Origin: an uncultured bacterium
GTDB taxonomy: Bacteria > Patescibacteriota > Patescibacteriia > Patescibacteriales > UBA12465
Direction: 5' to 3'
DNA length: 64,000 bases
Assembly: GCA_942492765.1 (NCBI GenBank)
Contig: OW818634.1
Coordinates: forward strand, 409,159 to 473,158
Under the pieces are notes generated by a model, which made no database searches, was not told the origin of the DNA, and worked only from the letters and a program-made list of their open reading frames with translations. Positions 4,964 to 24,543 of the stretch are shown piece after piece. Position 1 is the first letter of the stretch; every line of letters starts with the position of its first letter. A program made the translations under genes and the position numbers.

Positions 4964-6862
4964 TTACATGCCTGCTTCTTCTTGGCGGCTTTCATCGAAT
5001 TCCTTCTTAGCTTCTTCTAATTCGAGCAGCTGGCGCGGATCAGAGGTAATTAACTGATCTTCGGTATAAGAGGCGACCGCTTTCATGGCGACGTGCTTAT
5101 TGCCAGCGAAGAAGATGCCTTCGCCGACGCCGCATTCTAACAACAGATATTTCTCGCCCTCAGTCAGCATGAAAGTCTTCTGAATCAGGTCGATGGCGGC
5201 CGGCGACTGCTTGAATAATAGCTGCAAAGAAGAATTATTAACAATGGCCTGGCCATAGGGAGAGGTTAAGAAATCATTAACATCTTGCGTAATGGTCGTG
5301 ACGCCCAGATAATACTTACGGCAGCGCTTGACGAGGGCGAAGATGAATTTAGCTGAATCTTCATGCTGCATCATCCACCAGGCTTCATCGATGACTAGGA
5401 TGCGCTTCTTCATCTCGCTGCGGACGACATTCCAGATATAATTGACGATGGTATAAATAGCGATCGGACGGAGCTCATCTTCCAGATCGCGGACCGAGAA
5501 GCAGACGAGCTGATTGCTCATCTCGACGTTAGTCTGATTATTGAGCAAGCCGGCAAAAGTTCCCTCGGTAAATTTGCGCAGACGCAACGCTAAATCCGTA
5601 CCGCCTTCCATGCCGTCAAGAATCTGCTCGAAATCAGCCATGATTGGCGCTTCAATCTTGGATAAATCGGAATCCGGAGTAATATCCTTCTTAGCATAAG
5701 TTTCTAATAAGGCGCGGTCAACGATAGAATCCTCATCATAGCTCAGATTGCCTAACATCAGGCGCACTAAGCCTTTAAGCGTAATGACAGCGCTGCGGAT
5801 GATGTCTTTCGGTTTCGCTTCCCCGCCGATAGAACGCGGGAGATCGAACGGATTAATCTTATTCTCGGAAGACAAGGAAATGTTTATATAGGTGCCGCCG
5901 ACGGCTTCAGCCAGATGCTTGTATTCATATTCCGGATCAATAACAATGACGTCGGTGCCGAGCATCAAAGAGCGCAGGATCTCTAATTTGATCGCATAAC
6001 TCTTGCCGGCGCCGGAGGTAGCGAAGACCACGGAGTTGGCATTCTGAAGAGTGAAGCGGTCAAACAGGATCAAGCTGTTATTATGGCGGTTGATGCCATA
6101 TAAGATACCTTGATCGCTTGTGAGCTCGCTAGAAATGAAGGGGAAAGACGAGGCGATCGGCGAAGAATTCATGTTGAAGGTGATATATAATTCATCGTCG
6201 CCCAAAGGCAGAGTCGAATTGAATCCCTGTTCTGACTGATAATAGACGCGGCGGGAATAGACTAGGCGTGAACCAAAGACATCCTCGACCTGATCGCTCA
6301 GGCGATCCAGATCTTCGAGCTTGTCAGCGTATAAGGTGACATACAAGGCGAACTGGAAGAATTTTTCCGTTCCCTGGGTGAGCGCATCGCGCAGGTATTC
6401 GATATCGCGCAAAGCGGTTTCTCGCAACGGATCACGAGCAGCGCCCTTCTCCGCGTCAGAAACTATCTGCGCTTCCAAAGCGCCGACCTTATTCTTTAGT
6501 TGCTTCAAGATAATCGCGCTCTTGACCTGATAGAAGAACATCGAGACGTCGAAGGTCACGTTCAGATTGATTATCGGCGCGAACCAGCCGACAGAGATAT
6601 AGCGCGGATAAGAAACGATGAAAATAGTGCGCAAGAACTTATTGCCCAAAGCGAGGTGATTGGCTTCGACTTTAAGGCTAGCCGGAGCGATGATATCGCG
6701 GACGGATAAGACGCCGCGGCGGAAAGCCTTCTCTTCCTCGATGATCTCCCGAGTCAATTCCGGATTCTCCTCAATCGGATGCGCCACGGGCTTAACCCCG
6801 ATAGTAATCGGGGTATTAAGGCCTATCTTATTCTTTTCTTCTTTCTTGCTGAAATCGATCAT
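4964..6862 (-). CDS. VirB4/TrbE/TraC-type type IV secretion ATPase
   Basis: Walker A ATSGAGKSY and Walker B ILVIDEAWWMM. The N-terminal domain pattern (IAPASL...RTIFIVSYP) is typical of VirB4-like proteins. Confidence 0.85.
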   Translation of the reverse strand: MIDFSKKEEKNKIGLNTPITIGVKPVAHPIEENPELTREIIEEEKAFRRGVLSVRDIIAPASLKVEANHLALGNKFLRTIFIVSYPRYISVGWFAPIINLNVTFDVSMFFYQVKSAIILKQLKNKVGALEAQIVSDAEKGAARDPLRETALRDIEYLRDALTQGTEKFFQFALYVTLYADKLEDLDRLSDQVEDVFGSRLVYSRRVYYQSEQGFNSTLPLGDDELYITFNMNSSPIASSFPFISSELTSDQGILYGINRHNNSLILFDRFTLQNANSVVFATSGAGKSYAIKLEILRSLMLGTDVIVIDPEYEYKHLAEAVGGTYINISLSSENKINPFDLPRSIGGEAKPKDIIRSAVITLKGLVRLMLGNLSYDEDSIVDRALLETYAKKDITPDSDLSKIEAPIMADFEQILDGMEGGTDLALRLRKFTEGTFAGLLNNQTNVEMSNQLVCFSVRDLEDELRPIAIYTIVNYIWNVVRSEMKKRILVIDEAWWMMQHEDSAKFIFALVKRCRKYYLGVTTITQDVNDFLTSPYGQAIVNNSSLQLLFKQSPAAIDLIQKTFMLTEGEKYLLLECGVGEGIFFAGNKHVAMKAVASYTEDQLITSDPRQLLELEEAKKEFDESRQEEAGM

Positions 6863-6868
6863 ATTAGT

Positions 6869-7549
6869 TTATTTCTCTACCCTGAGCTTGTCTAAATCGA
6901 CTAATTCCTGGTTCTGAGAGGTTTCCGGGTTATAGGTCTTATAATAAAGCTCAATCAGGCTCTGGGTATCTAAGCGGGCGACGGCGACGCCGAGCGATTC
7001 TAGGCCGCCGGTGACGCTGTCGATGCGGCGATCAAGCATCTCCTGATAATTCTTAAAGGTTTTTTCCTTAAGCTTGATGACAGTCGCCGGCTTAAGCGCT
7101 TCGCTCAATAGGCTCATGAAACCTTTATGCTTATCAGTCAGCGGGTCATAAGGAACAATCACGTAAAAACGCTTATTCATGATCTTGCCCAAGGAGGTCA
7201 GCTCTTTGATATATTCGATATAGTCGGCGGTCTGAACTTTCAATAATTTATTCATCTGCTCCTTCTCTTTATTCTTCAAGTATTCCAGATAATTATTGAT
7301 GTCTAATTCGCGGGACTGGATGACGATCTGGAGCGTGAAGGTCAGATTATTCAAGAAGCGGACATAAGAATCAATAACCGCATTCTGTTCGTCTTCGCTC
7401 TTGAGCGCGAAATTTATACTGGAAACGAGAAGCACGGCGCGCAAAGTGCCATCCTTCATCACGACGGTGTTATCCTTAATCTCAGCAATATTCAGATATT
7501 GCTGGGTAGAAGAGCTTATTTTATTCTTAGCCAATCCTTTTTCCGGCAT
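6869..7549 (-). CDS. Hypothetical T4SS-associated protein resembling the non-ATPase N-terminal domain of VirB4-type proteins
   Basis: 226-aa ORF packed tightly between the PrgI-like and VirB4-like genes. Contains YLNIAEIKDNTVVMKDGTLRAVLLVSSINFALKSEDEQ and no Walker motifs. Confidence 0.5.
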   Translation of the reverse strand: MPEKGLAKNKISSSTQQYLNIAEIKDNTVVMKDGTLRAVLLVSSINFALKSEDEQNAVIDSYVRFLNNLTFTLQIVIQSRELDINNYLEYLKNKEKEQMNKLLKVQTADYIEYIKELTSLGKIMNKRFYVIVPYDPLTDKHKGFMSLLSEALKPATVIKLKEKTFKNYQEMLDRRIDSVTGGLESLGVAVARLDTQSLIELYYKTYNPETSQNQELVDLDKLRVEK

Positions 7550-7567
7550 AATTTAAATTTATCCTTT

Positions 7568-7987
7568 TTATTCTCCTTTATAGCGTCCTTTGGTATCGAC
7601 GACGAGCGCCAGTTCGGCCAAGCGCGACTTCTTATACATTTTCGGACCGACGGCTGGCGTCTCCGGCTTGATCTCGATATTCGGTTCTCCGACTTCGGCG
7701 GCCATCATGCGATTATTCCAAACCCTTATTCCCGGACGGCGTAAAGTCTGAAAGGCATTGAGCATGAACAGATGAAAGGGGCGGCCGTTTATCTTGACGA
7801 AGGCGAATAGGGCGGCAAAGATGAGCGTCACGATGCCGACGGTCAGGAAGAGAGTAAAATCGAACAGCTTATAGCTGATGCCGATAATGACGGCGGCGCC
7901 AAGAATAATCATGAATTGGCGCACAGTCAGAGGGCCGATAATCTTATTCTCGACATCGATGAATTGAGGAACGGTGAACTGCTGCAT
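7568..7987 (-). CDS. PrgI-family (VirB3-like) small membrane protein
   Basis: 139 aa. N-terminus is QFTVPQFIDVENKIIGPLTVRQF, followed by two TM helices. Confidence 0.6.
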   Translation of the reverse strand: MQQFTVPQFIDVENKIIGPLTVRQFMIILGAAVIIGISYKLFDFTLFLTVGIVTLIFAALFAFVKINGRPFHLFMLNAFQTLRRPGIRVWNNRMMAAEVGEPNIEIKPETPAVGPKMYKKSRLAELALVVDTKGRYKGE

Positions 7988-7992
7988 ATATC

Positions 7993-9375
7993 TTAAAAAA
8001 CTAACTTGCTATTCAAGCTGACAATCGCCTCAATCTCTTCCATGTTCAGATATTCCTGGTTGGCGGTCTTGCGCGCTTCGGCTACCTGCTTCATGGGCTG
8101 GCCTTTAGCGATCGCTTCTTGGCCTAAGCGCAGATACAGGCGGCTGACCGGACTCTGGCGCCAAGCGCGGACGCCGGCGACCATCTTATCATAACCATCC
8201 TTCTCTAATAATTTTATCTTGGAAAAAACTTTAGAGGTTATCTCAGCTGGAGTCGCGCCTAAGCGGCGGAAATTTACCACATCCAAGAATTGCAATTCTT
8301 CAATCGGACCCATGACTTTGGGCATCGGCTTGATATCATGCATCTGCGGGCGGGCGGCTGAAGGAGCGGGTGCCTGTTTGCCAGCTAAAGTACGCGCGGC
8401 GGCCATAGAAATCGGAGGCGTCGGAACGGCTTTAACGGCGGCGGGAGTTGCAGCTGATTTAGGCGCGATAGCGGCGGCCGGAGCAACTTTGAGAGCAGAA
8501 GCGGGAATAATGATCTTCGGGGCGATTGGAGCAGCGGCGACGGCCGGGGCTTTGGGAGCTGCTACCGTAGCCGCAGCGGCTATCGGCTTCTCTTCAACTT
8601 TCGGCTTAATATCTAATTTAGGCTTAGGCAGGTCTAATTGTTCTTCCGGTTCAGGCAGTTCATGCTTCGTATCTAGAGCCTGAGGAATGATGGATTTAGT
8701 TTCTCCCTTAGCTAAAGCTTGTTTAAGATTATACTCTGAACTTATCGGAGCGGATGCTTTATCGGCGCTGCCGATAATCTTATCTAGGCGCGTCACTGGC
8801 GGCATGGCGACTGGGGCGGATTGAGTGGAAACAGCTGGAGTGATCAGGCCTTTAGAAATCCGAGTGTCGCAGATCTTCAAGACGCGATCAATCTCTTCCG
8901 GACTTAGATTAAGGCCTCCAATCTTAACGTCTTTAGATAAAGTATTACGCGTATCTATCTTGCTCCTGATGCCGCGCGCATAAGTAGAAACGATATTCTT
9001 AAAACGGCTGATAGCGACGGCGCTCGGCAAAACTAAACCCGCTTCCTTAATCACCACTTCAATATCCTTATCAAGATCTAGGGCGCGTATTTCCGAAACC
9101 AGTCCTAAATAGTCGGCCATGGACGCGAATATTTTCTCTTTCAATTCTTTAACGAGCTGAGCCGCCATTTCCGGAGTCAATAATAATTCTCCGGTCAGGT
9201 AAGCCGGCAAATCTGAGAATTTTAAACTTTTGACCATCAACTTCATGACGACGATGGCCAAGTCAACCTTATATTTAGCCTCTAGCTCGGAAATTTTGGC
9301 CATGGCTGACGGCGAAGAAACCTGATCGCGCAGGTTTTTAGGAAGATTATTGAATTGTTGTAAATAGTCGAACAT
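7993..9375 (-). CDS. Hypothetical protein with a long central Ala/Pro/Lys-rich linker, first gene of the T4SS-like cluster
   Basis: 460-aa ORF with a low-complexity AP-rich middle (PKAPAVAAAPIAPK...). Antisense ORFs in this region are GC/Ala-repeat shadows. Confidence 0.6.
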   Translation of the reverse strand: MFDYLQQFNNLPKNLRDQVSSPSAMAKISELEAKYKVDLAIVVMKLMVKSLKFSDLPAYLTGELLLTPEMAAQLVKELKEKIFASMADYLGLVSEIRALDLDKDIEVVIKEAGLVLPSAVAISRFKNIVSTYARGIRSKIDTRNTLSKDVKIGGLNLSPEEIDRVLKICDTRISKGLITPAVSTQSAPVAMPPVTRLDKIIGSADKASAPISSEYNLKQALAKGETKSIIPQALDTKHELPEPEEQLDLPKPKLDIKPKVEEKPIAAAATVAAPKAPAVAAAPIAPKIIIPASALKVAPAAAIAPKSAATPAAVKAVPTPPISMAAARTLAGKQAPAPSAARPQMHDIKPMPKVMGPIEELQFLDVVNFRRLGATPAEITSKVFSKIKLLEKDGYDKMVAGVRAWRQSPVSRLYLRLGQEAIAKGQPMKQVAEARKTANQEYLNMEEIEAIVSLNSKLVF

Positions 9376-9425
9376 CTTTTTCTATTTTAACATATTATGC
9401 CAAAAAGAGAAAGGAAAATAAGCGG

Positions 9426-10364
9426 CTAGAGAGTCGTTATCGGGCGGCTCTGAGTTATATAGAATTTGCCCTGTTTATAGGCCCATTCGATATCGCAGGG
9501 AAACTTATAATGCTTCTCAATGCCGACACATATCCTAGCCAACTCCACTATTCTTGGGCCATTCAATTTCTGCTTAGCCTGTCCCGATTTAGCAATCGGA
9601 ACCCATTTGGTTCCGCCGGCAGAGCCCTTGATAATCTGCCTGGCCTGAGAGGCTACGTTTATATCAATAAGCGAATAGTCGCGCTTATCCAGCACATAAG
9701 AATCCGGGGTTATCGACCCGGAAACAATCGCTTCTCCTAGGCCGTATCCGGCTTCGATGATCATCTGATTCTTATCTTTGGTCACGGGGTGGACAGTAAA
9801 GGCGATGCCGGAAATCTCTGAATCGATCATAACTTGGACTACGACCGCAACGCCGACTTTTGTCTTCAATAATTTTTTCTCGTGGCGATAAAAGATGGCG
9901 CGCGGCGTGAATAATGAGGACCAGCATTTCTTGACGTTAGCCAGTAAAGTCTTGTTTGTCGTGTTCAGGTATGTTTCCAGTTCCCCGGCCCAAGAGGCTG
10001 ACGACGAATCTTCGGCCGTAGCGCTAGAACGGACCGCGACAAACTTGGCCTTCAGCTTCTTAAAATCACTGACAATATCTTTTTCCAAGTCGACAGGCAT
10101 CTTGGCAGCGGCGACCAGGTTGCGAATTTTTGCGGAAGCGCCATCGACGGAATTTATATCTTTATAATTCACTTTCTTCAAGATCGCTTCTAATTCTTGG
10201 GTCAGATCAGTTTCAGCGAGAAAACGATTAAAAGCCGAGGCTAAAATAACGAAACCCGAAGGAACCGGAATCTTAGCTTTAGTCATTTCTCCAAGAGAGG
10301 CTCCCTTGCCGCCAGCTTCGGCAACAGAATTTTTAGTAATCCGACTAAATGGCTTAATATACAT
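9426..10364 (-). CDS. Stand-alone PEP/pyruvate-binding ATP-grasp domain protein (PPDK_N, N-terminal domain of PEP synthase / rifampin-phosphotransferase-type enzymes)
   Basis: Contains GGKGASLGEM and VAVRSSATAEDS, and ends at ...YITQSRPITTL. No swivel-His or TIM-barrel domain in this ORF. Confidence 0.8.
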   Translation of the reverse strand: MYIKPFSRITKNSVAEAGGKGASLGEMTKAKIPVPSGFVILASAFNRFLAETDLTQELEAILKKVNYKDINSVDGASAKIRNLVAAAKMPVDLEKDIVSDFKKLKAKFVAVRSSATAEDSSSASWAGELETYLNTTNKTLLANVKKCWSSLFTPRAIFYRHEKKLLKTKVGVAVVVQVMIDSEISGIAFTVHPVTKDKNQMIIEAGYGLGEAIVSGSITPDSYVLDKRDYSLIDINVASQARQIIKGSAGGTKWVPIAKSGQAKQKLNGPRIVELARICVGIEKHYKFPCDIEWAYKQGKFYITQSRPITTL

Positions 10365-10435
10365 ATCATTATTATTTACTTATATTAATATTAGCATAAA
10401 ATAACCAAAAAATGTAATTAATCAGACTTAAATTA

Positions 10436-10464
10436 TTGACAAGATTACAATAATATTATAAAAT
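10436..10464 (+). promoter_or_regulatory. Sigma70-type promoter TTGACA-N17-TAAAAT
   Basis: TTGACA at 10436-10441, a 17-nt spacer, TAAAAT at 10459-10464. It lies about 80 nt upstream of the phosphatase gene. Confidence 0.55.
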
Positions 10465-10544
10465 ATTAGGAATATTTAGAACTTTAATAACAAACAAATC
10501 ACCTCATAAACCTCTGGTCCCGTAGTTAACGGGTCTATTACTTG

Positions 10545-11144
10545 ATGAAAACTTTAGCAATAATTCGTCACGGACGGAAAGACAAAGATGGAACTTTGGT
10601 CGATAAGGATCAGCTCGCTGAGATTGAAAACATCGGAATTGCCAGCTTAAATGGTTTAGTCAAGAAACACAAAGGCTTAGTTGTATTCCATCTGGGAACA
10701 GCCCTCGAAAGGACAGGACAAACCATAAAGGCTTACGAAAGACATCTCGATATATCTAACGCGATTAATTCTTTCGGCGGCTACTTACCGGCTGATGCCC
10801 GCTTAGGAAGCAATAAGATTTTTAAAGAATTCAGCGAGAATCCCGAAATCGTCAAAGAAGCGGAAAGGACTACTTGGTTCAATGCTTTTAGGAGACATAA
10901 TCCGAAATTCATCGAGAAGATACAAATTAACATGCTCGATGCGATTACAGACATATTCTCGCGTGTCGATGACGGCAGCTTAGTTATTAGCTCCAGCCAT
11001 ACGCCCATGATCGAATGGCTCGCCCTTGGCATTGACGAGAACGACCATAAAATTTCTTGCAAAATTCAACTTAAGGAATTGACCGGCTTCATCTTTACTG
11101 AAGACAAGGGGCGCATCCAGGTTGCAGGAACTATCGGATTTTAA
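10545..11144 (+). CDS. Histidine phosphatase superfamily protein (phosphoglycerate-mutase-like)
   Basis: RHG catalytic motif (LAIIRHGRKD) near the N-terminus and a second His in SSSHTPMIEW. ATG at 10545; the track uses TTG at 10542. Confidence 0.75.
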   Translation: MKTLAIIRHGRKDKDGTLVDKDQLAEIENIGIASLNGLVKKHKGLVVFHLGTALERTGQTIKAYERHLDISNAINSFGGYLPADARLGSNKIFKEFSENPEIVKEAERTTWFNAFRRHNPKFIEKIQINMLDAITDIFSRVDDGSLVISSSHTPMIEWLALGIDENDHKISCKIQLKELTGFIFTEDKGRIQVAGTIGF

Positions 11145-11170
11145 ATGGCCCAAAGAAAAATGATGACAAA

Positions 11171-11196
11171 ACCGACACCAAAAGTGCCGGTTTTTT
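11171..11196 (+). terminator. Putative rho-independent terminator after the phosphatase gene
   Basis: Imperfect hairpin ACCGACAC...GTGCCGGT followed by TTTTTTATTTT. Confidence 0.4.
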
Positions 11197-11199
11197 ATT

Positions 11200-13074
11200 T
11201 TATTTTATTATCCTCACTATTCCTTTATCCGCATCGACTTCGACGAGGTCGCCATCTTTCAGGACTTTAGTCGCGATCCTGGTGGCGATGACGCAGGGCA
11301 CGTTCATTTCGCGGGCGACGATGGCCGCATGCGAAGTTACTCCGCCTTGATCGGTCACGAAAGCTCCAGCTTTTTTCATGGCCGGCAATAAATCCGGTTG
11401 CGTCGAGATGGAAACGAGAATATCTCCTTTCTTCATCTTTTCCATATCGCGGATAACATTAACGATCCGAACGATCCCCTTGGCTTGTCCGCGGCAACCG
11501 CATTGCCCTTTCAGCTCTGAAACATCCCTGCTCTCATCTTTCTGGATATATTTCTTAATTATCTGCTCGGCTGCACGGCCGCTATAATAAACTTCGGTGT
11601 CTTTGGCCGTATAATACAAGCTGAGCTTAGCGCGAGATTTTATCTCTTCCTTGTCCAATTGATGATCGAACAGAGCCGCTTTTATCTCCTTCGAGGTCAT
11701 GAATCTCGTTTCTTTCAGGCTCAAACCGATACGCCTAGCTATCTCCTCCAAGAAGAAAGTCGTCTTATAAAGAGCGAAGAGCTGGGCATAGCGGCGATAT
11801 ATCTTCGTCACCATGAAATCGCCCCAGGCGCCGAAGAAACGAGTCGTCTTTTTTGATAGGCTCATTTTTTTGATGAGAGCCTGTTTGTCTGCCAGTACCA
11901 TCTTTATCTTTTTCTCTTGGTCTCCATAGGTTTTCTTGAGGTTATTGTCTCCATTAACTAAGCGGACTAACTCTTTCAGATAATGCTCAAAATTATAGAC
12001 GCCCTGCTCTTCAGTATAGATGAACTTGGTATAGAAATACTTGGCATAATGCTTCTGCAAATCATCTAATACCTTCCTATCGATCCGATTCTTGAGAGTC
12101 CGGACGACCTCCTCGAATTTATCCTCATACTCCTCGCTGTGGGTATATAGGCCGAAGAATTTAACATCTTCTTCTTTGAACTTCCTGAATAATTCCTTGA
12201 AAATGGAAAATTGCTTGGGATCAGACTGGACAGCAATACCGATCTTAATCAGAGCATCTTGCTCTTCTTTCAAGAGCGAATCCTGTTCCGGCTGAGTAAG
12301 CAGGGCGAGATATTCCTCAATTTTCGCAACCGGAGCCTTCAGTTCTCTTAGCATCTGCTTGCCGCGATTAGTCAGATTATCGCCGAACATATCGGCGGCT
12401 ACCGGAATCCAACCCCATTGATAATATGCCTGATGCACTTCTTCATGCTCCTTATAGTAGCGCCACAGCTTCTCTGAAGATACCTTATCCAGACCGCTTT
12501 CAGGAATCTTAGCGACCGTAGCGACTAGCTTATCGGCGAAAAGTCTTATCTGAGAATTAACCTCTTCCATGAAATCGACGTCGCTCTCGAACTTGTCGAC
12601 TAAATGGTCGCCTACGGCCTGCGCGTCCTGCTTATCAAAATAGAACCAGAGATGATAGCCCCGATAAACGCAAGCTTGATGCTGATAGGCTTTCCCGCCT
12701 GGCTGAGCGAATTGATTCGTAAAGCAATAAAAAGGGATGGCCATGAACCAGGGGTTAGCGTTGATGATCTCTTCGGCTAACAGCCATTCACGATTAAATA
12801 TCTTCTCGACTTCTGCGCCTTTATTCTTCTGGAAAAGATTGATAAGCTCCGGCCCGATCGCATAATCGGTATTGAAGGAATAGCTTTTCTTCCTATTTTT
12901 AAGTTCTTGCGCGATTATGCCTTCCTTAATCAGCTTATCCAGTTCGCGGGTGATATTGGCCGCATCTTTCTTGACAGCCTCTCTTATTTCTAAAAAATAA
13001 AAAGACCGCTTCGGGCTGGCGGTCAGAAGCATCAATATCTCATAAGCGGTCTGCGATTTGAATAGATTCTTCAT
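11200..13074 (-). CDS. Winged-helix (ArsR/MarR-like) domain, helical central domain and PEP-utilizer phosphohistidine swivel domain fusion protein
   Basis: N-terminus has YEILMLLTASPKRSFYFLEIREAVKKDAANITRELDKLIKEGII. C-terminus has GGVTSHAAIVAREMNVPCV, matching the PEP-enzyme phosphorylation-site pattern. ATG at 13074 is preferred over TTG at 13095. Confidence 0.8.
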   Translation of the reverse strand: MKNLFKSQTAYEILMLLTASPKRSFYFLEIREAVKKDAANITRELDKLIKEGIIAQELKNRKKSYSFNTDYAIGPELINLFQKNKGAEVEKIFNREWLLAEEIINANPWFMAIPFYCFTNQFAQPGGKAYQHQACVYRGYHLWFYFDKQDAQAVGDHLVDKFESDVDFMEEVNSQIRLFADKLVATVAKIPESGLDKVSSEKLWRYYKEHEEVHQAYYQWGWIPVAADMFGDNLTNRGKQMLRELKAPVAKIEEYLALLTQPEQDSLLKEEQDALIKIGIAVQSDPKQFSIFKELFRKFKEEDVKFFGLYTHSEEYEDKFEEVVRTLKNRIDRKVLDDLQKHYAKYFYTKFIYTEEQGVYNFEHYLKELVRLVNGDNNLKKTYGDQEKKIKMVLADKQALIKKMSLSKKTTRFFGAWGDFMVTKIYRRYAQLFALYKTTFFLEEIARRIGLSLKETRFMTSKEIKAALFDHQLDKEEIKSRAKLSLYYTAKDTEVYYSGRAAEQIIKKYIQKDESRDVSELKGQCGCRGQAKGIVRIVNVIRDMEKMKKGDILVSISTQPDLLPAMKKAGAFVTDQGGVTSHAAIVAREMNVPCVIATRIATKVLKDGDLVEVDADKGIVRIIK

Positions 13075-13082
13075 ATATATAT

Positions 13083-13117
13083 GTCTTGAAGACAATAATT
13101 ATTGTCTATAAGACAAT
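13083..13117. promoter_or_regulatory. Two inverted repeats sharing TGTCT-N3-AGACA, a candidate operator
   Basis: TGTCTtgaAGACA at 13083-13095 and ATTGTCTataAGACAAT at 13101-13117. The centres are 20 bp apart, immediately upstream of the wHTH-fusion gene. Confidence 0.4.
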
Positions 13118-13139
13118 ATTATCACGGAAAATAATCCTG

Positions 13140-14726
13140 TCAACCTTTTTTCTTCTTCATTAAACGCACTATTCCCTGCTCCGCGTCCATCTCTACCGAA
13201 TCGCCATCGCGGAGAACTTTAGTCGCCACCTTAGTGCCGACGATACACGGAATCCTTAATTCTCTGGAAACGATAGCAGCATGGCAGGTAATGCCGCCAG
13301 CGTCGGTAATGATTGCCGCCGCCCTCTTCATAGCCGGAACCAAATCCGGCGTAGTTGCTATCGAGACCAAGATATCGCCCTTCTTCATCTTAGGAATATC
13401 GCTAGGAATATTAATGACTTTGATCGCGCCCCTAGCCTTGCCCGGAAAAGCGCAGTCACCCGACAGTGAATTGACATTCTTGATATTCTCTCTGATGATA
13501 TTCAGGCGGGCCGATATCTTTCTCGCTTCTGCTCCGCTCACATTCAGATCATCCTTGAAATCCCCGACAGAATAATACAGATTGAACTTATATCTTTCAT
13601 TCAAGATAGCAACATCAAAATTATTGCCCAAGAGGAGCTCCTTGAACTCATGCGGATAAAGATAGCGGACTTGGCGGATAGCTAGGTAGCGGCGGCGGCC
13701 GATTTCCTTGAATAATCTCTCGACTATCGACCAGCTATGGAACATGGAATCCTTTCTAGTCCCCTTGGTAAACACGAGATTCCTAGCAAAAGCTAATATC
13801 TCTTCGTGCTTCTTATCTATCTTGAGGTCGCGGACTAATTTCTTCTGCCTATTCAATATTTCTTGCCGACCAGCTTTCACGCCTTGCAGGGCCTTCTGGG
13901 GATTCACACCCTGCCTAGCCAGGCTTGATAGGATATCGATAAAATACTCTCTTCCCCAAGACGGCCCGACCATGCCATAACCAAGCCAGCCGAAAGATTC
14001 GGCATGCCGGCTAATCATCGAATCTAATCTCTTATCTAATTTTAACAATTTCCTGTCGATATCTTCTACGCCATGCTTGGCAAAGATTTTCTTCAAAGCC
14101 GGCTTACTAATGATGTGTCCCAATATCGACAGAAGTTGTTTATATTCTTCAGAGGCCTTAGCGTCCCTAGTCGGCGTCGTGAGAGTAGAGAAAGCTTCAC
14201 CCAAAGAATAATCTTGACCGGCAATCCTATCTTTAAGGTAATTCCTCAGATATTTAGAGAGGATACTCTCCCCAAAATCAGCCGCCGTCTGCATCCAATG
14301 AAGGACATGCAGGCGGCTATAGATAGCATAGTATTTATCATAAACCTTGAATAATCCCTTGTCGGAGAGCTTGGTTAAATTTATCTTATTCAAGCTGTCA
14401 GAGGAGCGATACAGCTCATCTTCTGCTTTTTCAAGATCTTTAAGATAACGATTGCCCCATTTCGGGTTCTTCTTAATATTCTCCAATAGCTCTAAACCGA
14501 TCTCTTTGAATTCCTGCCGAGCCACTAGCAACTGGCAGATATTATCCTGGAAGATCATTGCTAAGCAGGACATCTTTCTTCTAAAGCCATAACTTTTAAG
14601 AAACCTGTTCGCCCGGGCCGTGTTCCAAGCAATACCAGCCATCATTGGATAATAATTCGGCATTTCCTCCATACAGAAGAGTTCTTGGCGGCTGACGGAA
14701 ATATTTTTACGCTTACGGCTGTTCAT
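13140..14726 (-). CDS. PEP-utilizer swivel-domain protein, paralog 2 (helical N-terminal region plus phosphohistidine domain)
   Basis: C-terminus has KGDILVSIATTPDLVPAM...GGITCHAAIVSRELRIPCIVGT. No ATP-grasp or TIM-barrel domain. Confidence 0.8.
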   Translation of the reverse strand: MNSRKRKNISVSRQELFCMEEMPNYYPMMAGIAWNTARANRFLKSYGFRRKMSCLAMIFQDNICQLLVARQEFKEIGLELLENIKKNPKWGNRYLKDLEKAEDELYRSSDSLNKINLTKLSDKGLFKVYDKYYAIYSRLHVLHWMQTAADFGESILSKYLRNYLKDRIAGQDYSLGEAFSTLTTPTRDAKASEEYKQLLSILGHIISKPALKKIFAKHGVEDIDRKLLKLDKRLDSMISRHAESFGWLGYGMVGPSWGREYFIDILSSLARQGVNPQKALQGVKAGRQEILNRQKKLVRDLKIDKKHEEILAFARNLVFTKGTRKDSMFHSWSIVERLFKEIGRRRYLAIRQVRYLYPHEFKELLLGNNFDVAILNERYKFNLYYSVGDFKDDLNVSGAEARKISARLNIIRENIKNVNSLSGDCAFPGKARGAIKVINIPSDIPKMKKGDILVSIATTPDLVPAMKRAAAIITDAGGITCHAAIVSRELRIPCIVGTKVATKVLRDGDSVEMDAEQGIVRLMKKKKG

Positions 14727-14739
14727 ATGTTTAGCAAAA

Positions 14740-16251
14740 TTATCTTATCCTCTTTATCACTTTTACTATTCCTTTTCTGGCGTCGACTTCTACTATATCG
14801 CCGTCTTTCAAAATTCGCGTAGCGATTTTTGTGCCGATAATGCAGGGAATCTTCATCTCCCTAGAGACGATAGCGGCATGGCAGGTGACTCCGCCGGCAT
14901 CAGTAATGATAGCGCTAGCGCGATTCATGGCCGGCACCAATGACGGATTAGTAGAAAAACTGACTAGAATATCACCTTTGTTAAATTTCTTAATATCGGC
15001 AACAGCATTGATAATCTTGACTGCGCCCCGCACGCGACCAGGAAAAGATACTTGGCCGGTAAAAATATCCACATTAGTCTTGATGAGTTTCGGCATCTGT
15101 ATATATCTAACCATACTTTCAGCTTCTTTCCCTACCAAGACACGGCTTTTACCCTTAATAGTTACGAAAGCGGAAAGATGGAATCTCTCGGGCAATTCTT
15201 CAGCTCTCGGCCGGCGCCCAGAACGCAAGAATCCTCTAATTTCTTCTGGGGTAAAATATTTCGCTTGTGTCTGAGAACAGAAAAGACGGCGCCCTAATTC
15301 TGTAAACCATGAGCTCATCGCATAATTCAGATAATATATCTGCATCTCTTTGCGCAATTCCTTGATAAAAGAAAATTCGCGTAATAGGCGGATGTCATGA
15401 CGGGCGGAAACCGATAACGAACTTTCAATCCTCTTCTGCCAAGCGCCTAATTTTTCCCTCTCTCGCTTATTAGCCGACAGGATCTTTCCCGCTTTATCTC
15501 CTGCCCTGCCTTTCAATAATTCGAAATAATACTCTGGTCCGGCAGCCTGGCCGTCATAATAATATTGCAACCAGCCGAAGCGCCTAGACAATGATTGCAA
15601 CTGGCGGCGCTGAGAAATATTATCCAGGTTAGCAAGCTTCGAAGCTCTTTTAAAGACGCGCCATAGCTTCGGCTGTCTCTGCCAGCGCGCTAATAATCCT
15701 AAAGCTGCCTCAGCTTCGCGACGGACATAGGTGGCTTTGAGAGGAGTTAATAAGCGGCTAAAAATTACGCCAGGATCGCCAAAAGCAGATAGCGAGCCGC
15801 GAATATTTTTCTCTACGAACACAGAATATTTATTATCGCCCATGTCCACATATTGCGGGATAGCAGACCAATCAGCTATCTCCAGCCAGATGCGACAAAA
15901 ATCGTCATAAATCTTGCTTAATCCACGCGGTGACATCTTTTTTAAGTCTTTGTGCTTGAGGCTAGAGACAAATCTTGTGATTTTAGCAAAACCAATATAA
16001 TGCTGCCGCACGATTTCTTCCGCCAAAGTTGAGTCAGCCTGCAAGCGCGGCAAAAAATAAGCGCCGGCGGCGGAAAATTGGCTAACATCCGGAGCCCAGA
16101 GCGCCTTACCTTCCTGAAAAATGAATATGGAATCGATAAATATCTTCCCTTTGGTCTTCAAACGCAGATCATAAAAAGTCTTATTCCAAAGGAGCCAAGG
16201 ATGCGGCGGCACGTTATAATCTTCCGTAAAGAGAGTAAATTTTTTGGACAT
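14740..16251 (-). CDS. PEP-utilizer swivel-domain protein, paralog 3
   Basis: C-terminus has KGDILVSFSTNPSLVPAM...GGVTCHAAIVSREMKIPCIIGT. It lies 13 nt upstream of paralog 2. Confidence 0.8.
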   Translation of the reverse strand: MSKKFTLFTEDYNVPPHPWLLWNKTFYDLRLKTKGKIFIDSIFIFQEGKALWAPDVSQFSAAGAYFLPRLQADSTLAEEIVRQHYIGFAKITRFVSSLKHKDLKKMSPRGLSKIYDDFCRIWLEIADWSAIPQYVDMGDNKYSVFVEKNIRGSLSAFGDPGVIFSRLLTPLKATYVRREAEAALGLLARWQRQPKLWRVFKRASKLANLDNISQRRQLQSLSRRFGWLQYYYDGQAAGPEYYFELLKGRAGDKAGKILSANKREREKLGAWQKRIESSLSVSARHDIRLLREFSFIKELRKEMQIYYLNYAMSSWFTELGRRLFCSQTQAKYFTPEEIRGFLRSGRRPRAEELPERFHLSAFVTIKGKSRVLVGKEAESMVRYIQMPKLIKTNVDIFTGQVSFPGRVRGAVKIINAVADIKKFNKGDILVSFSTNPSLVPAMNRASAIITDAGGVTCHAAIVSREMKIPCIIGTKIATRILKDGDIVEVDARKGIVKVIKRIR

Positions 16252-16263
16252 ATTTTAATATTC

Positions 16264-16674
16264 CTAGACTCGACAAAAACTCGACTTATACTTTTCCGGA
16301 TGATGAGCCTTTAGTCTTTTTATCTTACAGGAAAAGCGAAATCCGGCGATTTCGCTTTTTAATTGCGGCAAATCAACTTGCTGATCATAGCCTAAGCAGA
16401 TTATCTCCGGACGATATTTTTTCAGGATAAGCCAGCGGTTCTTAAGATTTCCTAAAACAGCCCTCCCTGTTATACCTAGCTCTTTGAGGGCGCGTCTAAC
16501 CTTACGCTGGCGAGTCTTCTCGTCATCTTGCGGCGCACGTTTCTTAATCACCAAGACATTCTTGTCGCGGGCAATTATGACTATCAGCTCATCGCCAAAA
16601 AGGCGAGCCTGTTTGAAATAATCCAAGTGCCCAGGATGAAGATTGTCGAATGTTCCGAAAGTCATGACGCGCAT
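16264..16674 (-). CDS. Cytidylyltransferase-fold nucleotidyltransferase (RibL/TagD-like)
   Basis: N-terminus is TFGTFDNLHPGHLDYF (the HxGH motif). 136 aa. Confidence 0.7.
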   Translation of the reverse strand: MRVMTFGTFDNLHPGHLDYFKQARLFGDELIVIIARDKNVLVIKKRAPQDDEKTRQRKVRRALKELGITGRAVLGNLKNRWLILKKYRPEIICLGYDQQVDLPQLKSEIAGFRFSCKIKRLKAHHPEKYKSSFCRV

Positions 16675-16680
16675 AATAGA

Positions 16681-16716
16681 GACAAAACACCACTCTTCAC
16701 AGAGCGGTGTTTTTAT
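16681..16716 (-). terminator. Hairpin terminator/attenuator downstream of metK
   Basis: 10-bp stem, 16687-16696 paired with 16701-16710 (one G-U pair), with a tetraloop and flanking U-rich sequence. Confidence 0.5.
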
Positions 16717-16722
16717 TGTTCT

Positions 16723-17874
16723 TTATTTTATCGCCTTTTTCAATTCTGCGACCTTATCGGTCTTTTCCCATCTGAATTCTCCTCGGCCGAAATGGCCGTA
16801 AGCCGCGGTCTTCAAGAAGACCGGCTTTCTTAGCTCCAGATGATCAATAATCGCTTTCGGGCGGAAATCAAAAACTTTATTAATTGCTTTTAGGATATCT
16901 TCTTCCGCATATTTATTCGTGCCAAAAGTATCGATATAGATACCGACCGGCTTAGCGACGCCGATAGCATAAGCGACCTGGACCTCGCATTTATCGGCTA
17001 ATCCAGCCGCAACGACGTTCTTAGCCGCATAGCGAGCCATATAAGCGCCGGAGCGGTCGACTTTGGACGAATCCTTGCCCGAGAAGCAGCCGCCGCCATG
17101 ACGCGCGACGCCGCCATAGGTATCGACGATAATCTTGCGGCCAGTCAGACCGGTATCGGCCGCCGGACCGCCGAAAGTAAAGGCGCCAGTAGAATTGATA
17201 TAGACTTTAGTCTTCTTGTCCATTAATTTGCCTAAAACCGGCTTAATGACTTTCGCTAAAATATCGGCACGGACCTTAGAAAGCTTAGCCTTCTCGCTAT
17301 GGCAAGCGGCGATAACGACAGTTTCGACACGCTTAGCAATGCCGTCATGATATTCGACGGTCACCTGGCTTTTTCCATCCGGTCTTAAATAAGGCAGGGT
17401 TTTATTCTTACGGACTTCAGCTAATCTAAAAGTTAATTTATGAGCTAAGGTTATCGGCAAGGGCATGAGCTCCTTAGTCTCGTTAGTCGCGAAGCCGTAC
17501 ATCAAGCCCTGATCGCCGGCTCCCTGCTCCTTGAATTCGCCCGCGCCCTCATCAACGCCTTGAGCGATTTCCGCGCTCTGCGCATGGAGAGATGACATGA
17601 TACCAACGCTATCGCAATCAAAGCCGGATTCAGCGCCGTTATAGCCGATGCTCTTTAAAACCTTCCGGACAATATCGTCAACTTGGATATATTCTTTAGT
17701 TCTAACTTCCCCGCCGACGACAATCATACCGTTAGTAGCGAATGATTCCACGGCCGCATGGCTAGCCGGATCTCTCTTTAACATCTCGTCCAGGATACCA
17801 TCTGAAATTTGATCGCAGACCTTGTCCGGATGTCCTTCGGTAACAGATTCCGAAGTGATTAATTTTATGTTCAT
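16723..17874 (-). CDS. metK: S-adenosylmethionine synthetase
   Basis: Contains TSESVTEGHPDKVCDQISD, GAGDQG and GGGCFSGKD motifs. Confidence 0.95.
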   Translation of the reverse strand: MNIKLITSESVTEGHPDKVCDQISDGILDEMLKRDPASHAAVESFATNGMIVVGGEVRTKEYIQVDDIVRKVLKSIGYNGAESGFDCDSVGIMSSLHAQSAEIAQGVDEGAGEFKEQGAGDQGLMYGFATNETKELMPLPITLAHKLTFRLAEVRKNKTLPYLRPDGKSQVTVEYHDGIAKRVETVVIAACHSEKAKLSKVRADILAKVIKPVLGKLMDKKTKVYINSTGAFTFGGPAADTGLTGRKIIVDTYGGVARHGGGCFSGKDSSKVDRSGAYMARYAAKNVVAAGLADKCEVQVAYAIGVAKPVGIYIDTFGTNKYAEEDILKAINKVFDFRPKAIIDHLELRKPVFLKTAAYGHFGRGEFRWEKTDKVAELKKAIK

Positions 17875-17931
17875 ATTTTTTGTTCCGCTGTGGTAACGGA
17901 GATAATTAAGTTATGTCCTGCTATCGAATCT

Positions 17932-19188
17932 TTAAGTCCCTGATTCCCAAGAAGACAGATAAGCGGCTTGTTCCGCGGTCAATTTATCTATCTTGATGCC
18001 TAATGACTTCAACTTCATCATAGCTACCTTCTTTTCTATTTTCTCAGAAACATTATGAACCTTGACTTCTAATTTTCCAGCGCTCTTAGCGACGTACTCA
18101 GCCGCTAAGGCCTGGGTAGAAAAACTCATATCCATAACGCTAGACGGATGACCTTCGGCAGCCGCTAAATTAATGAGGCGGCCCTGACCGAGAACATAGA
18201 CGCGTCTCTTCCCTAAGATATACTCATCAACATTATTATTGACGTTATAATTTACCTTATTAGCCAATTTTTTCAAAGCCGGAATATTTATTTCCACGTC
18301 GAAATGGCCGGAATTACAGACCATGGCTCCGTCTTTCATAACCTTGAAGTGTTCCTTGTCGACAACCTTGAGGTCGCCAGTGATAGTGCAGAAGACGTCG
18401 CCGACTTTAGCCGCTTCTTTCATCGGCAGTACTCCGAATCCGTCCATCGCTGCTTCTAAAGCTTTAATCTCGTCGACTTCAGTCACGATAACTTGAGCGC
18501 CCATACCTCTGGCGCGCATTGCAAAGCCGCGGCCGCACCAGCCGTAACCGGCTACCACGAAGACTTTACCAGCGACCAATAAGCCAGTCGCACGGATGAT
18601 GCCGTCGAGAGTCGATTGTCCGGTGCCATAGCGGTTATCGAACATGTTCTTGGTCTTAGCGTCATTAACGGCGATGACCGGCAATAATAATTTCTTATCA
18701 GCGGCCAAAGCGCGCAAGCGAATAACTCCGGTCGTCGTTTCTTCCATGCTGCCCAAGATATCCTTAACCTGATGCTTATATTTATTATGCAAGAGAGAGA
18801 TCAGATCGGCGCCATCATCCATCGTGATATTCGGGCGATTCTGCAGAGCCTGATTCAAATGAGAATAATAAGTCTTAGTGTCTTCGCCATGGATAGCTAA
18901 GACCTTGATGCCATGGTTCTTCACTAAAGCCGCGGCGATATCGTCTTGCGTCGATAGCGGATTAGAGGCTACTAAAGTAATATCCGCTCCGCCAGCTTGG
19001 AGAGCCAGCATTAAGTTAGCTGTTTCCGCGGTTACATGCATGCAAGCCGAAACCCGCTTGCCCTTGAATGGCTTAGTTTTCTTAAAATCGGCCTTAATGA
19101 TTTCTAAAACCGGCATATCGCGACTAGCCCAAGCCAAACGCTTTTCGCCGCTAGCGGCTAGATTCATGTCCTTTACGTGGTGAGTCAT
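17932..19188 (-). CDS. ahcY: Adenosylhomocysteinase
   Basis: Contains DDGADL and the NAD-binding GYGWCGRG. Overall SAH-hydrolase pattern. Confidence 0.95.
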
Positions 19189-19217
19189 ATTTATTTAAAA
19201 TATTTTTAAGCTCTTAT

Positions 19218-20174
19218 TTATATCTTCAGACTTTCCTTATAATTCTCCTGATACCTTTTCTTAAGTTCCGCCAGACTGAAGCGATGCGTCTGGGTGCCAT
19301 ATTTCTCAACCGTATAAACCGCCACTAACCCGGCTAATTGGCCGCAAGCCTTTAGATTATAGCCCTTTATCAGGCCTTTGATAAGGCCGGCGCGATAGGC
19401 GTCGCCGGCGCCGGTCGGGTCCGAGGTATTCTTCGGTTTTGCCGGTTTAATCACTACCTTCTCCTGGCCTTGATATATTTCCGATCCCTTGCCACCCTTA
19501 GTTATTACTAATATCTCGACTAGTTTTACCAGCTGCGCCAAAGTTATCTTCATCTTATCGGCCATCAGTTTTATTTCATAATCATTGCCGATAAGCACCT
19601 TCGCACCACTGACAGCTTTCTTAAGTTCCGCGTCCGAAAAGGCAATTAAGGCTTGGCCCGGATCAAAGATATACGGGACATGATGCTTCTGATAGGCGAA
19701 CGCATAGTCTAACATCCGCTGCTTATCATCAGCGGCAATGATAGCCAGATCAATCTCCTTAAAATTACAGGCGCGGCGCGCATAATCTTTCGGTCGCGCT
19801 CCAGGATAAAACGCAGCGATCTGATTGTCAGCTTGATCGGTAATGATATAAGCCGTTGCCGTCCTGTCGGTCGAAACGGTCCTGACCCGGCTGATATCAG
19901 CTCCGCCCTTTTCTAGCCATTTACGATAATCGCCAAAATCAAAACCGGCTACCCCTAGGATAATCGGTTTCTCTTTCAGAAGAGCCAGGCTATAAGCGAT
20001 ATTTCCGGCCGTGCCACCGAAGCTGCGGCGCAAGCCGCTGAGGAAGAAGCTTAAATTCAAATTGTGGATTTCTTTAGGCAGGATATGGTCTGAGAAACGT
20101 CCGGGAAAATCCATGATCTGGTCGTAAGCGAGCGATCCGGAAACAGCTATTTTTAATCTTTTATTTTTTAACAT
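19218..20174 (-). CDS. PfkB-family sugar/nucleoside kinase, plausibly adenosine kinase given the metK-ahcY context
   Basis: DPTGAGDAYRAG signature near the C-terminus and GGTAGN near the N-terminus. Confidence 0.8.
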   Translation of the reverse strand: MLKNKRLKIAVSGSLAYDQIMDFPGRFSDHILPKEIHNLNLSFFLSGLRRSFGGTAGNIAYSLALLKEKPIILGVAGFDFGDYRKWLEKGGADISRVRTVSTDRTATAYIITDQADNQIAAFYPGARPKDYARRACNFKEIDLAIIAADDKQRMLDYAFAYQKHHVPYIFDPGQALIAFSDAELKKAVSGAKVLIGNDYEIKLMADKMKITLAQLVKLVEILVITKGGKGSEIYQGQEKVVIKPAKPKNTSDPTGAGDAYRAGLIKGLIKGYNLKACGQLAGLVAVYTVEKYGTQTHRFSLAELKKRYQENYKESLKI

Positions 20175-21126
20175 CTGCTTTCTGGGATTTTTTAAGTTCT
20201 GATCTCTTGAAACGGCTGATCTCTTGCGATATTGCCTTATGTTCTAAACTGGATTCGGAATAATTTTTCAGAATGCTTTCTAGTTCTGCTAAAGTTGTAG
20301 AAGGCGGCGTTACTAGAACGGGTTGAGGAATGACTGCAGAGGGCTGAGCCGGAGCAGGCGCGATTGAAGTCTTGTCTTCTATAACCGGCTCTTCTCCCAC
20401 CAGCTGCATCGCTGCTGCGATATTCTGATTTTCTGGGACTTCCTCCATGATGCCTTTACGGAAGATATAAAGCTTCCCTTTTATCAGTATTGGCGGCTCT
20501 TCCTCAAATCCTTCCGGAGTATCAGAGGCAAGGTTCAAACGATCATAGAAATTAAACAAGGCTAGGAGGTTATTGTATTCAGCTGGACTGACCTGTTTAT
20601 CGTTCTTTAGGGCGACTAGATATTGCGTCTTGGCCAGCTTATCAGAACTGTCCAGACCGACTTTAGCGACATAATTTTTCAGCCAATCCTTAATCAGCTT
20701 AGTATCATGATTAGCAACTATCTTTTCGCTATTCTCGACCAGGACGCGGCGCAGATCTTCTTTCAGCTTATTCCTTTCCTCAACGACTATGATATTTAAG
20801 AGTTTTGCCTCGATCTTCTGCAATAGGTCATAATTATCTATCTTGAATTGGAAGCAGAAATTATTCTTGATTAAGTCGACGACCTCATTATTTTCTAAAA
20901 GCGGCAAACCGATGAACTTCAGCTTCCGCATTGTCTCTTCGTAAAAAGACAATAGCTGCGGCTTTAATTTCAACTCCGCCATATTATCGCTAGCGGCCTT
21001 AAAAAGCACCGAAGTCAATTCCTTGGCCTTAGCATATTCATCATGCAAGACGATATAATCGACGACTTCTCTCAGGGAGTCGGCATAACTATTGTCTAAT
21101 ATTCTTTTGGATTCTTCATTAGCCAT
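20161..21126 (-). CDS. Hypothetical protein
   Basis: 321-aa ORF overlapping the PfkB gene start by 14 nt. No recognisable motif. Confidence 0.6.
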   Translation of the reverse strand: MANEESKRILDNSYADSLREVVDYIVLHDEYAKAKELTSVLFKAASDNMAELKLKPQLLSFYEETMRKLKFIGLPLLENNEVVDLIKNNFCFQFKIDNYDLLQKIEAKLLNIIVVEERNKLKEDLRRVLVENSEKIVANHDTKLIKDWLKNYVAKVGLDSSDKLAKTQYLVALKNDKQVSPAEYNNLLALFNFYDRLNLASDTPEGFEEEPPILIKGKLYIFRKGIMEEVPENQNIAAAMQLVGEEPVIEDKTSIAPAPAQPSAVIPQPVLVTPPSTTLAELESILKNYSESSLEHKAISQEISRFKRSELKKSQKADVKK

Positions 21127-21152
21127 ATATCAATGAAACGGGAATAATAAAA

Positions 21153-23777: not shown

Positions 23778-23778
23778 G

Positions 23779-24402: not shown

Positions 24403-24464
24403 AAGCCTGCCTTATATGCTTTATCTTTCCTTTAATTATATACCATTTGCAACGTTTTTGACAG

Positions 24465-24496
24465 CCTATTTTCGAGCCTATTTTTCACCCTATTTT
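24465..24496. repeat. Three direct CCTATTTT repeats with a 12-nt period in a promoter region
   Basis: CCTATTTT at 24465, 24477 and 24489, plus an inverted near-copy AAAATAGC at 24527-24534. Confidence 0.5.
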
Positions 24497-24543
24497 TAAG
24501 GTTGCCTAATGCTATTATTTTACTATAAAATAGCCGCAAAGGC

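Follow-up and report, generated by a model that had tools for sequence, protein, structure and literature searches.

Rifampin phosphotransferase (RPH) is a single chain composed of an ATP-grasp domain, a domain that binds rifampin (RIF), and a swivel domain that carries a His residue. Split RPH-like dikinases, namely phenylphosphate synthase PpsAB, CreHI, and HpeHI/AcvAB, have been biochemically proven to be two-component enzymes (PMC12167813). In HpeHI, the 40-kDa HpeI is an ATP-grasp protein whose crystal structure has been determined, and the 71-kDa HpeH has been modeled as a RIF-binding-like domain plus a swivel domain (PMC12167813). Mutation of the conserved His abolishes the activity of HpeHI, and HpeH alone moves phosphate between substrates (PMC12167813). 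The subunits of HpeHI and PpsAB form only a transient complex, in which the His attacks the β-phosphate of ATP and the γ-phosphate is released as Pi (PMC12167813); with such a transient complex, a single loader could serve many partners. The Hpe/Acv pathway also includes a phosphatase that acts at a later stage (PMC12624787). In this study, we analyzed a 64,000-nucleotide stretch of contig OW818634.1 (positions 409,159–473,158; the whole stretch is called the window) from an uncultured bacterium of the Patescibacteriota. Positions 9426–16251 hold a gene for a stand-alone ATP-grasp protein of 312 aa, a histidine-phosphatase-superfamily gene, and three genes for proteins with a C-terminal swivel His (S proteins or modules; S631, S528, and S503). 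On balance, the locus is best read as a split hub-and-spoke dikinase of the RPH type.

Like PpsAB, CreHI, and HpeHI, the locus encodes a separate ATP-grasp protein of ~35–40 kDa and separate subunits with a RIF-binding-domain-like part and a C-terminal swivel His, and by analogy the same chemistry, yielding AMP, Pi, and a phospho-product, would be expected. In contrast, these enzymes are 1:1 pairs for phenol-type substrates from aromatic-catabolism operons with carboxylases, whereas the ratio is 1:3 in the window and ranges from 1:0 to 1:9 or more in its relatives; no carboxylase was found among the neighbors of the locus by Pfam scans of the window or in the annotations of related loci. A winged helix on some of the Patescibacteria modules and the swivel motif, which has the PEP-synthase form (GGxT[SC]HAAI; PEP, phosphoenolpyruvate), are further differences. 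PpsA, CreH, and HpeH are ~45% identical among themselves. The NCBIfam PRK08296 models, which we take to be of this PpsA/HpeH type, match the modules in the swivel part only. MarK was considered as a shared kinase subunit and rejected, because it belongs to the unrelated family UPF0261.

RPH gave the best whole-length structural match to S528 and likewise has a C-terminal swivel His, and the ATP-site residues are common to RPH and the locus. However, the version in the window is split and only rare relatives are fused, and the RIF-binding domain of RPH has no detectable sequence similarity to the helical domain of the modules. Nothing points to rifamycins as substrates. PEP synthase and PPDK have homologous ATP-grasp and swivel domains and are the closest relatives by sequence for each domain (8a8e, E 1e-65 and 8e-28), but they possess a TIM barrel, where the locus has an RPH-type helical acceptor domain instead. 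The phosphotransferase system (PTS; Enzyme I/HPr and many Enzymes II) follows a similar logic, with one general coupler, many specific modules, and phosphate carried on His, and the His domain of Enzyme I is homologous to the swivel domain. This is an analogy, not membership: the donor at the locus would be ATP instead of PEP, the specificity module carries its own phosphohistidine, and HPr, Enzyme II, and a membrane component are absent. The split form itself is already known, while the one-to-many layout of exchangeable modules in Patescibacteria, the winged-helix fusions, and the embedded phosphatases appear to be undescribed. Literature searches found no paper describing these arrays, and a resistome survey of the candidate phyla radiation (CPR) merely counts 'rph'-like genes (PMC8651080).

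The ATP-grasp protein, the modules, and the phosphatase

An earlier note on this DNA had placed five genes here, and all of them were confirmed, with two possible starts for S631. Four lie on the minus strand, with the phosphatase gene as the single plus-strand gene among them. The ATP-grasp gene (9426–10364, minus strand) encodes PF01326 (PPDK_N) only, which spans residues 16–311 (E 3e-95), and the C-terminus, QSRPITTL, lies at the usual domain boundary. The protein matches the ATP-grasp domain of the Listeria enzyme RPH-Lm end to end (5hv6/5fbs, E ~1e-59). Lys22, Arg117, and Thr136 position ATP in RPH-Lm, as shown by mutagenesis (PMC4844700), and they are retained as K20, R112, and T131 in the 312-aa protein. 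Its similarity to RPH is about equal to that to PEP synthase, and the RPH model NF041857 scored 274 bits against a cut-off of 999. The best 120 database homologs are all 312–328 aa long and contain PF01326 only, whereas exact-sequence look-ups returned no record for either the ATP-grasp protein or the phosphatase. Such stand-alone homologs are automatically annotated as 'pyruvate, water dikinase' or 'PEP/pyruvate-binding domain-containing protein'. Because they carry these names without a PEP-binding domain, false PEP-synthase calls are possible in metabolic reconstructions of the CPR.

S631 (11200–13095, minus strand) has 631 aa when read from a TTG at 13095 and 624 aa from an ATG at 13074. 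It consists of an N-terminal winged helix, a RIF-binding-domain-like helical domain, and a C-terminal swivel (PF00391 at 555–625, E 2e-25) with the motif GGVTSHAAIVARE and the catalytic His589 (codon 11329–11331). S528 (13140–14726, minus strand; 528 aa) comprises the helical domain and a swivel (PF00391 at 448–518, E ~1e-25; motif GGITCHAAIVSRE) with His482 (codon 13281–13283). S503 (14740–16251, minus strand; 503 aa), a short and variable type, has PF00391 at 423–494 (E ~1e-25), the motif GGVTCHAAIVSRE, and His458 (codon 14878–14880). The swivel His lies no more than 50 residues from the C-terminus, and all three paralogs contain the T/SxxGGxxxH motif of the catalytic His known from two-component dikinases. 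The three proteins are 28–30% identical over their full lengths; the identity is 58–65% in the swivel and only 20–24% in the preceding ~400 helical residues, which agrees with the earlier description of divergent helical regions joined to conserved swivels. No PPDK_N signal was detected in any of them by Pfam and NCBIfam scans; therefore, they do not contain a cryptic ATP-grasp domain. All five genes of the locus are under purifying selection, with ratios of nonsynonymous to synonymous substitution rates (dN/dS, against the two closest relatives) of 0.03–0.15: 0.03–0.04 for the ATP-grasp protein, 0.06 for S631, 0.15 for S528, and 0.09 for S503.

The winged helix of S631 (approximately residues 8–94; window 12856–13095) gave weak matches to MarR and HTH_34 and matched the PADLOC profile PDC-M05A wHTH (E 1.9e-13, profile positions 7–92 of 201). 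The PADLOC scan of the locus returned nothing beyond this domain, and a defense-system reading, for which it is the sole match, is unsupported. Orthologs of S528 usually have 604 aa and an N-terminal winged helix, which the copy in the window lacks.

An AlphaFold2 model of S528 was built from 60 homologs (pLDDT 92.3, pTM 0.88). In the predicted structure, a long all-helical domain follows a few strands at the N-terminus and precedes the swivel. When the PDB was searched with Foldseek, the top six matches were Listeria RPH structures, including 5fbu and 5hv1 (E 8.5e-13 to 2.3e-11), with a TM-score normalized to the query (TMq) of 0.55–0.58 over ~580 aligned columns, whereas matches to PEP synthase, PPDK, pyruvate kinase, and Enzyme I were confined to the swivel domain. 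This whole-length match points to a split RPH-type dikinase, as the earlier note had preferred over a PEP-synthase-like enzyme. At the sequence level, the NCBIfam RPH-family models reach 70–130 residues upstream of the swivel domain in the S proteins (residues 395–629 in S631), and NF041857 scores 55–63 bits, far under the NCBIfam RPH cut-off of 999. A phmmer search that started from the last 300 aa of S631 fell short of the Arg666/Glu667 block of RPH. Because the helical domain is too divergent in sequence for a match to RPH, the case for homology of the acceptor domain is built on its predicted fold and these partial alignments. No PEP/pyruvate TIM barrel (PF02896) was found in the window by tblastn with the C-terminus of PpsA or by Pfam scans (39 open reading frames (ORFs) of at least 150 aa and the 136-aa gene at 16264–16674), in agreement with what had been noted before. 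In the related loci described below, all but L004 and L005, the PpsA C-terminus likewise gave no significant tblastn match.

Based on these structures and on the characterized enzymes, the following mechanism can be proposed. The 312-aa protein would bind ATP and offer it to the mobile swivel domain of each S protein, where His589, His482, or His458 would attack the β-phosphate and the γ-phosphate would leave as Pi. The swivel would then swing back to its own RIF-binding-homolog helical domain and hand the phosphate to a bound acceptor, so that the net reaction would be ATP + X → AMP + Pi + X-P. Charging of the S proteins in trans by the single ATP-grasp protein, as proposed in the earlier note, is quite probable by analogy with PpsAB, CreHI, and HpeHI (PMC12167813). 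Any module may be able to dock on the loader, because the ATP-grasp and swivel parts are kept similar. Each module would recognize a different acceptor; this part of the model is likely, because the helical domains are only 20–24% identical and have their closest relatives in other genomes. The diversity of the modules and the small-molecule substrates of all characterized relatives favor small molecules as the acceptors.

The phosphatase gene (10545–11144, plus strand; ATG at 10545) encodes a 199-aa protein. The protein in the window has no Pfam match of its own, with PF00300 scoring under the cut-off; Pfam signals in its orthologs are weak, and a profile search of the PDB gave a marginal match to PGAM (E 0.13). 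The residues R8-H9-G10, R56, H152, and E157 are kept in its orthologs. An AlphaFold2 model built with database homologs (pLDDT 92.1) matched the histidine phosphatase fold in the PDB with a Foldseek probability of 1.0 (E ~1e-6, TM ~0.6). The top matches were small-molecule histidine phosphatases: HFP (9mmh), PhoE (1h2e), PSP (4ij6), and RosC. As judged from this model, the protein is a member of branch 1 of the histidine phosphatase superfamily, consistent with the RHG phosphatase originally recognized. One ortholog in the JGI data is automatically named SixA, after the small, cap-less phosphatases that act on protein phosphohistidine; the model has a helical cap insert (approximately residues 90–139) and its best matches are small-molecule phosphatases. 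The cap and these matches favor a metabolite as the putative target over the phosphohistidine of the modules. By precedent of the phosphatase in the Hpe/Acv pathway, this protein, and the HAD, HD, or other histidine phosphatases in related loci, would remove phosphate at a later step. Orthologs of the gene lie on the opposite strand in 19 related loci (L003 and L012, which are one contig, are both counted), and a protein on an 896-kb contig is 100% identical to that of the window.

The phosphatase gene diverges from the ATP-grasp gene, with a good promoter-like site at 10436–10464, and converges with the S631 gene. A strong bidirectional terminator-like hairpin lies between the convergent genes (11168–11194, both strands; −11.7 kcal/mol on the plus strand, z −4.0, and −15.7 kcal/mol on the minus strand, z −4.9) and has U-runs on both strands. 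The S genes sit closely behind genes for AdoHcyase, MetK, and a cytidylyltransferase-like protein, with successive spacers of 12, 13, and 44 bp. Their unit terminates at the hairpin, toward which the phosphatase gene also runs. The ATP-grasp gene opens a separate unit that continues into an Ala/Pro-rich 460-aa ORF and then PrgI, TraC-like, and VirB4-like genes.

Related loci: one putative loader, many modules

One genome per species was scanned with the ATP-grasp protein as the query, which yielded 80 loci with an ATP-grasp identity of 59–95%. Judging by the record titles, and apart from apparent binning or labeling errors, all belong to Patescibacteria (Falkow-, Magasanik-, Kerfeld-, Buchanan-, and Doudnabacteria). 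Each of the 80 loci has exactly one stand-alone ATP-grasp gene of ~312–335 aa. The number of S genes within 10 kb of it varies from none to six or more, and a metagenomic locus (L003) has nine. Among the 37 fully flanked loci, six have no S gene, five have one, three have two, ten have three, nine have four, three have five, and one has six. Without exception, the 223 S genes share the strand of the ATP-grasp gene. The layout of one ATP-grasp gene with several modules, noticed first in the window, is supported by this comparison of 80 species.

The S proteins are highly diverse. The helical domains of 164 full-length proteins fall into 44–72 sequence clusters. In 163 of these 164 cases, another genome holds the nearest helical domain; the paralogs are therefore old and distinct, and recent tandem duplication is ruled out as the source of the three in the window. 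Cluster 0 (the S528 type) occurs in 29 loci and cluster 1 (the S631 type) in 19; both are single-copy, widespread, and usually equipped with a winged helix. The other types form a long tail of rare proteins of ~480–510 aa, including S503 (cluster 3, 6 loci). Searching 1.84 billion proteins with a profile built from the three helical domains gave 2,768 representatives at 50% identity, of which 1,407 had E ≤ 1e-10.

Despite this diversity, the catalytic machinery is retained. Of 175 full-length S proteins from the related loci, 172 have an identifiable catalytic His (within the strict GGxTxHA motif in 141), and none was detected in the other three. Only R324, E341, R345, E360, and R378 (S528 numbering) are conserved at 80% or more across the 164 helical domains, which fits a common phosphotransfer site with variable pockets. 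Going by approximate position, the counterpart of R324 in RPH may be the catalytic Arg666 block. The swivel and helical identities are ~54% vs. ~24% within a locus and 67% vs. 35% between orthologs. The conservation of the swivel and ATP-grasp parts, together with the variability of the helical domains, suggests a conserved docking pair with freely exchangeable specificity modules.

Fused relatives link the two parts directly. P0083 (859 aa, nested among cluster-0 orthologs) and P0153 join an ATP-grasp domain (A) and an S module in the order of RPH. P0266 is an A-S-S protein of 1306 aa, and its uninterrupted ORF was verified in L086. It is a direct precedent for a single ATP-grasp domain serving two modules. 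Further fusions have the orders S-S-S-A-S (P0138), S-S-S (P0134), and S-HAD phosphatase (P0196). The P0266 gene (L086:3366-7286) lies on a contig of 34% GC, next to genes for a large serine recombinase, an XRE-type HTH protein, and an HD-domain protein; such surroundings hint at mobile elements as carriers of some versions of the system.

Close relatives of the window document the turnover of the modules. The locus L007, whose ATP-grasp protein is 94% identical, aligns to window positions 8621–11211 and 16270–24578 with ~6 bp between the two blocks, and thus the whole three-module array (11212–16269) is absent. L007 lacks exactly the three S genes, which indicates that modules come and go. Against the closest relative, L006, the synonymous divergence (dS) of the S genes and the cytidylyltransferase-like gene (window 11200–16674) is 0.05–0.12, compared with 0.74 for the ATP-grasp gene, 1.17 for the 460-aa ORF, 0.47 for AdoHcyase, and 0.30 for MetK. 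The low dS of the array relative to its flanks suggests recent recombination or transfer of the array.

Genes for phosphohydrolases recur inside the related arrays: HAD proteins in 17 loci, at least four families with a His_Phos_1 signal, HD proteins, and a protein with the metallo-beta-lactamase fold. Examples of recurrent array genes (HD, distinct His_Phos_1-like families of 200–345 aa, and an M29-peptidase-like family) are found at L003:3408-4019, L003:12502-13395, L013:3750-4703, L039:3828-4478, and L059:8618-9919.

Weighing the alternatives

Several observations weigh against a split dikinase with exchangeable modules. The ATP-grasp and S genes form separate transcription units in the window, with the hairpin and an opposite-strand gene between them. 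In 6 of the 37 fully flanked loci, an ATP-grasp gene is present with no S gene within 10 kb. Conversely, the orphan S gene P0087 (L004:10001-11824 and L005:6049-7872) has no ATP-grasp gene within 10 kb. At the level of the locus, then, coupling is not required. Swivel identity is 53.6% within genomes vs. 52.4% between genomes, a tiny effect, and no strong signature of co-adaptation to the resident ATP-grasp protein or of concerted evolution was seen. A profile of the helical domain (44 sequences) found no match to RPH in the PDB (E > 1). The two most conserved module types carry a winged helix, which a small-molecule kinase would not need. P0087 encodes a cluster-0 module of 607 aa; in L004 (a record of 599 kb), a full-length PpsA (PPDK_N, swivel, and TIM barrel) is encoded 9 kb upstream, and contigs listed for P0087 reach 1.5 Mb.

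The same hub-and-spoke scheme could act on macromolecules, such as nucleic-acid ends, proteins, or glycans, with the HAD, HD, and histidine phosphatases used for end-healing or reversal. The winged-helix domains on the core modules, the pairing of kinases with phosphatases, and the S-HAD fusion are compatible with this idea, and the last two recall polynucleotide kinase-phosphatases. Glucan water dikinases show that the superfamily can act on polymers (PMC13553574). However, at least 44 helical types among 164 proteins argue for many ligands instead of a generic polymer end. The nearest structural relative binds a small molecule, and the arrays of the related loci yielded neither carbohydrate-binding nor nuclease/ligase domains. 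We therefore regard macromolecular acceptors as improbable.

Slightly less probable still is a regulatory role, in which the charged swivel His would report an energy or ligand state and the S proteins would act as transcription factors or phosphorelay proteins through the winged helix. PTS-controlled regulators offer a comparable case. An N-terminal winged helix of the ArsR/MarR type is usual in clusters 0 and 1; the scores of HTH_5 and HTH_20 exceed the Pfam thresholds in P0011 and P0102, and the PADLOC match of S631 described above is also to a winged helix. However, most module types (~480–510 aa) have no winged helix, and S528 has lost it and is nevertheless under purifying selection. In the fused protein P0083, the ATP-grasp domain sits at the position of the winged helix. 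All types retain the large RIF-binding-domain-like fold and the few conserved Arg and Glu residues, and some of the embedded phosphatases are cap-domain enzymes of the small-molecule type.

The ATP-grasp and S genes may also be mere neighbors, with the S proteins charged by another donor and the ATP-grasp protein paired with, for example, the 460-aa protein and the type-IV-secretion-like genes. Across the syntenic group, an ORF of 450–570 aa and PrgI, TraC, and VirB4 invariably come after the ATP-grasp gene, which persists where S genes are absent (L007, L021, L028, and L058), and the orphan S genes and the separate transcription units mentioned above point the same way. Nevertheless, this explanation is distinctly unlikely. 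The A-S, A-S-S, and S-S-S-A-S fusions join the two parts, and no ATP-grasp protein of the RPH/HpeHI family is known to act unless a swivel His partner is present (PMC4844700, PMC12167813). Neither a PEP-binding TIM barrel nor another donor domain was found near the S genes of the loci searched (all but L004 and L005), and distant loci without secretion genes still have the ATP-grasp gene embedded among S genes.

Rare full-length fused relatives (P0083 and P0153) notwithstanding, the idea that the genes are decayed fragments of a single long PEP-synthase/RPH gene, or assembly or frameshift artifacts, is effectively refuted, because 80 species and the best 120 database homologs share the split form and its 312-aa length, the dN/dS values and the catalytic His in 172 of 175 full-length modules indicate functional genes, the three modules are distinct ancient paralogs instead of pieces of one gene, and their orthologs have no frameshifts or premature stops.

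Genomic surroundings and significance

The neighbors of the locus include AdoHcyase, MetK, the cytidylyltransferase-like gene, a PfkB kinase, and type-IV-secretion-like genes. The 136-aa cytidylyltransferase-like protein (16264–16674, minus strand; PF01467) always borders the S arrays and is retained where the array is absent; its pattern presumably resembles that of archaeal FMN adenylyltransferases of the RibL type. The 460-aa ORF (7993–9375, minus strand) has an Ala/Pro-rich, low-complexity center and no Pfam match; in syntenic relatives, its orthologs (423–633 aa) always separate the ATP-grasp gene from the PrgI/TraC-like/VirB4-like genes. The adjoining type-IV-secretion-like genes (4964–7987, minus strand) encode VirB4-like (632 aa), TraC-like (226 aa), and PrgI-like (139 aa) proteins; these names were taken from the precomputed Pfam families of syntenic orthologs. 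A separate ORF with a T4SS_pilin match is located at 41725–42702 (plus strand). A 2717-aa ORF (25859–34012, minus strand) and an 874-aa ORF (21153–23777, minus strand) have no Pfam match. The N-terminal part of the latter is very hydrophobic by eye, and its product may be a membrane protein. The remainder of the window is ordinary chromosome, with genes for rpoB/rpoC, LeuRS, LepA, RecJ, MurJ, pyruvate:ferredoxin oxidoreductase, RadA, and RecG.

The three modules occupy ~5 kb here, and the nine modules of L003 occupy ~14 kb. The array is a sizeable share of such small genomes, which suggests that it is important for the episymbiotic lifestyle. A broader and much more speculative proposal, which we consider unlikely as it stands, is that the ultra-small, host-dependent Patescibacteria run an ATP-powered, PTS-like hub-and-spoke system, in which a universal loader would serve dozens of horizontally exchangeable modules. 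These would capture membrane-permeant metabolites of the host by turning them into phosphate esters, or would neutralize toxins of hosts or competitors, and the phosphatases would release or process the products. Such a system would be a plug-in replacement for many of the canonical kinases and transporters that these bacteria lack.

The locus also matters for annotation and for experiments. The automatic annotation as 'pyruvate, water dikinase' would wrongly credit these organisms with PEP synthase. The soluble proteins, together with a clear His-labeling assay, provide a tractable experimental entry point. A single conserved loader with a variable set of at least 44 types of acceptor domain would follow a different design from that of the known 1:1 pairs and would be an ATP-driven counterpart of the division of the PTS into general and specific components.

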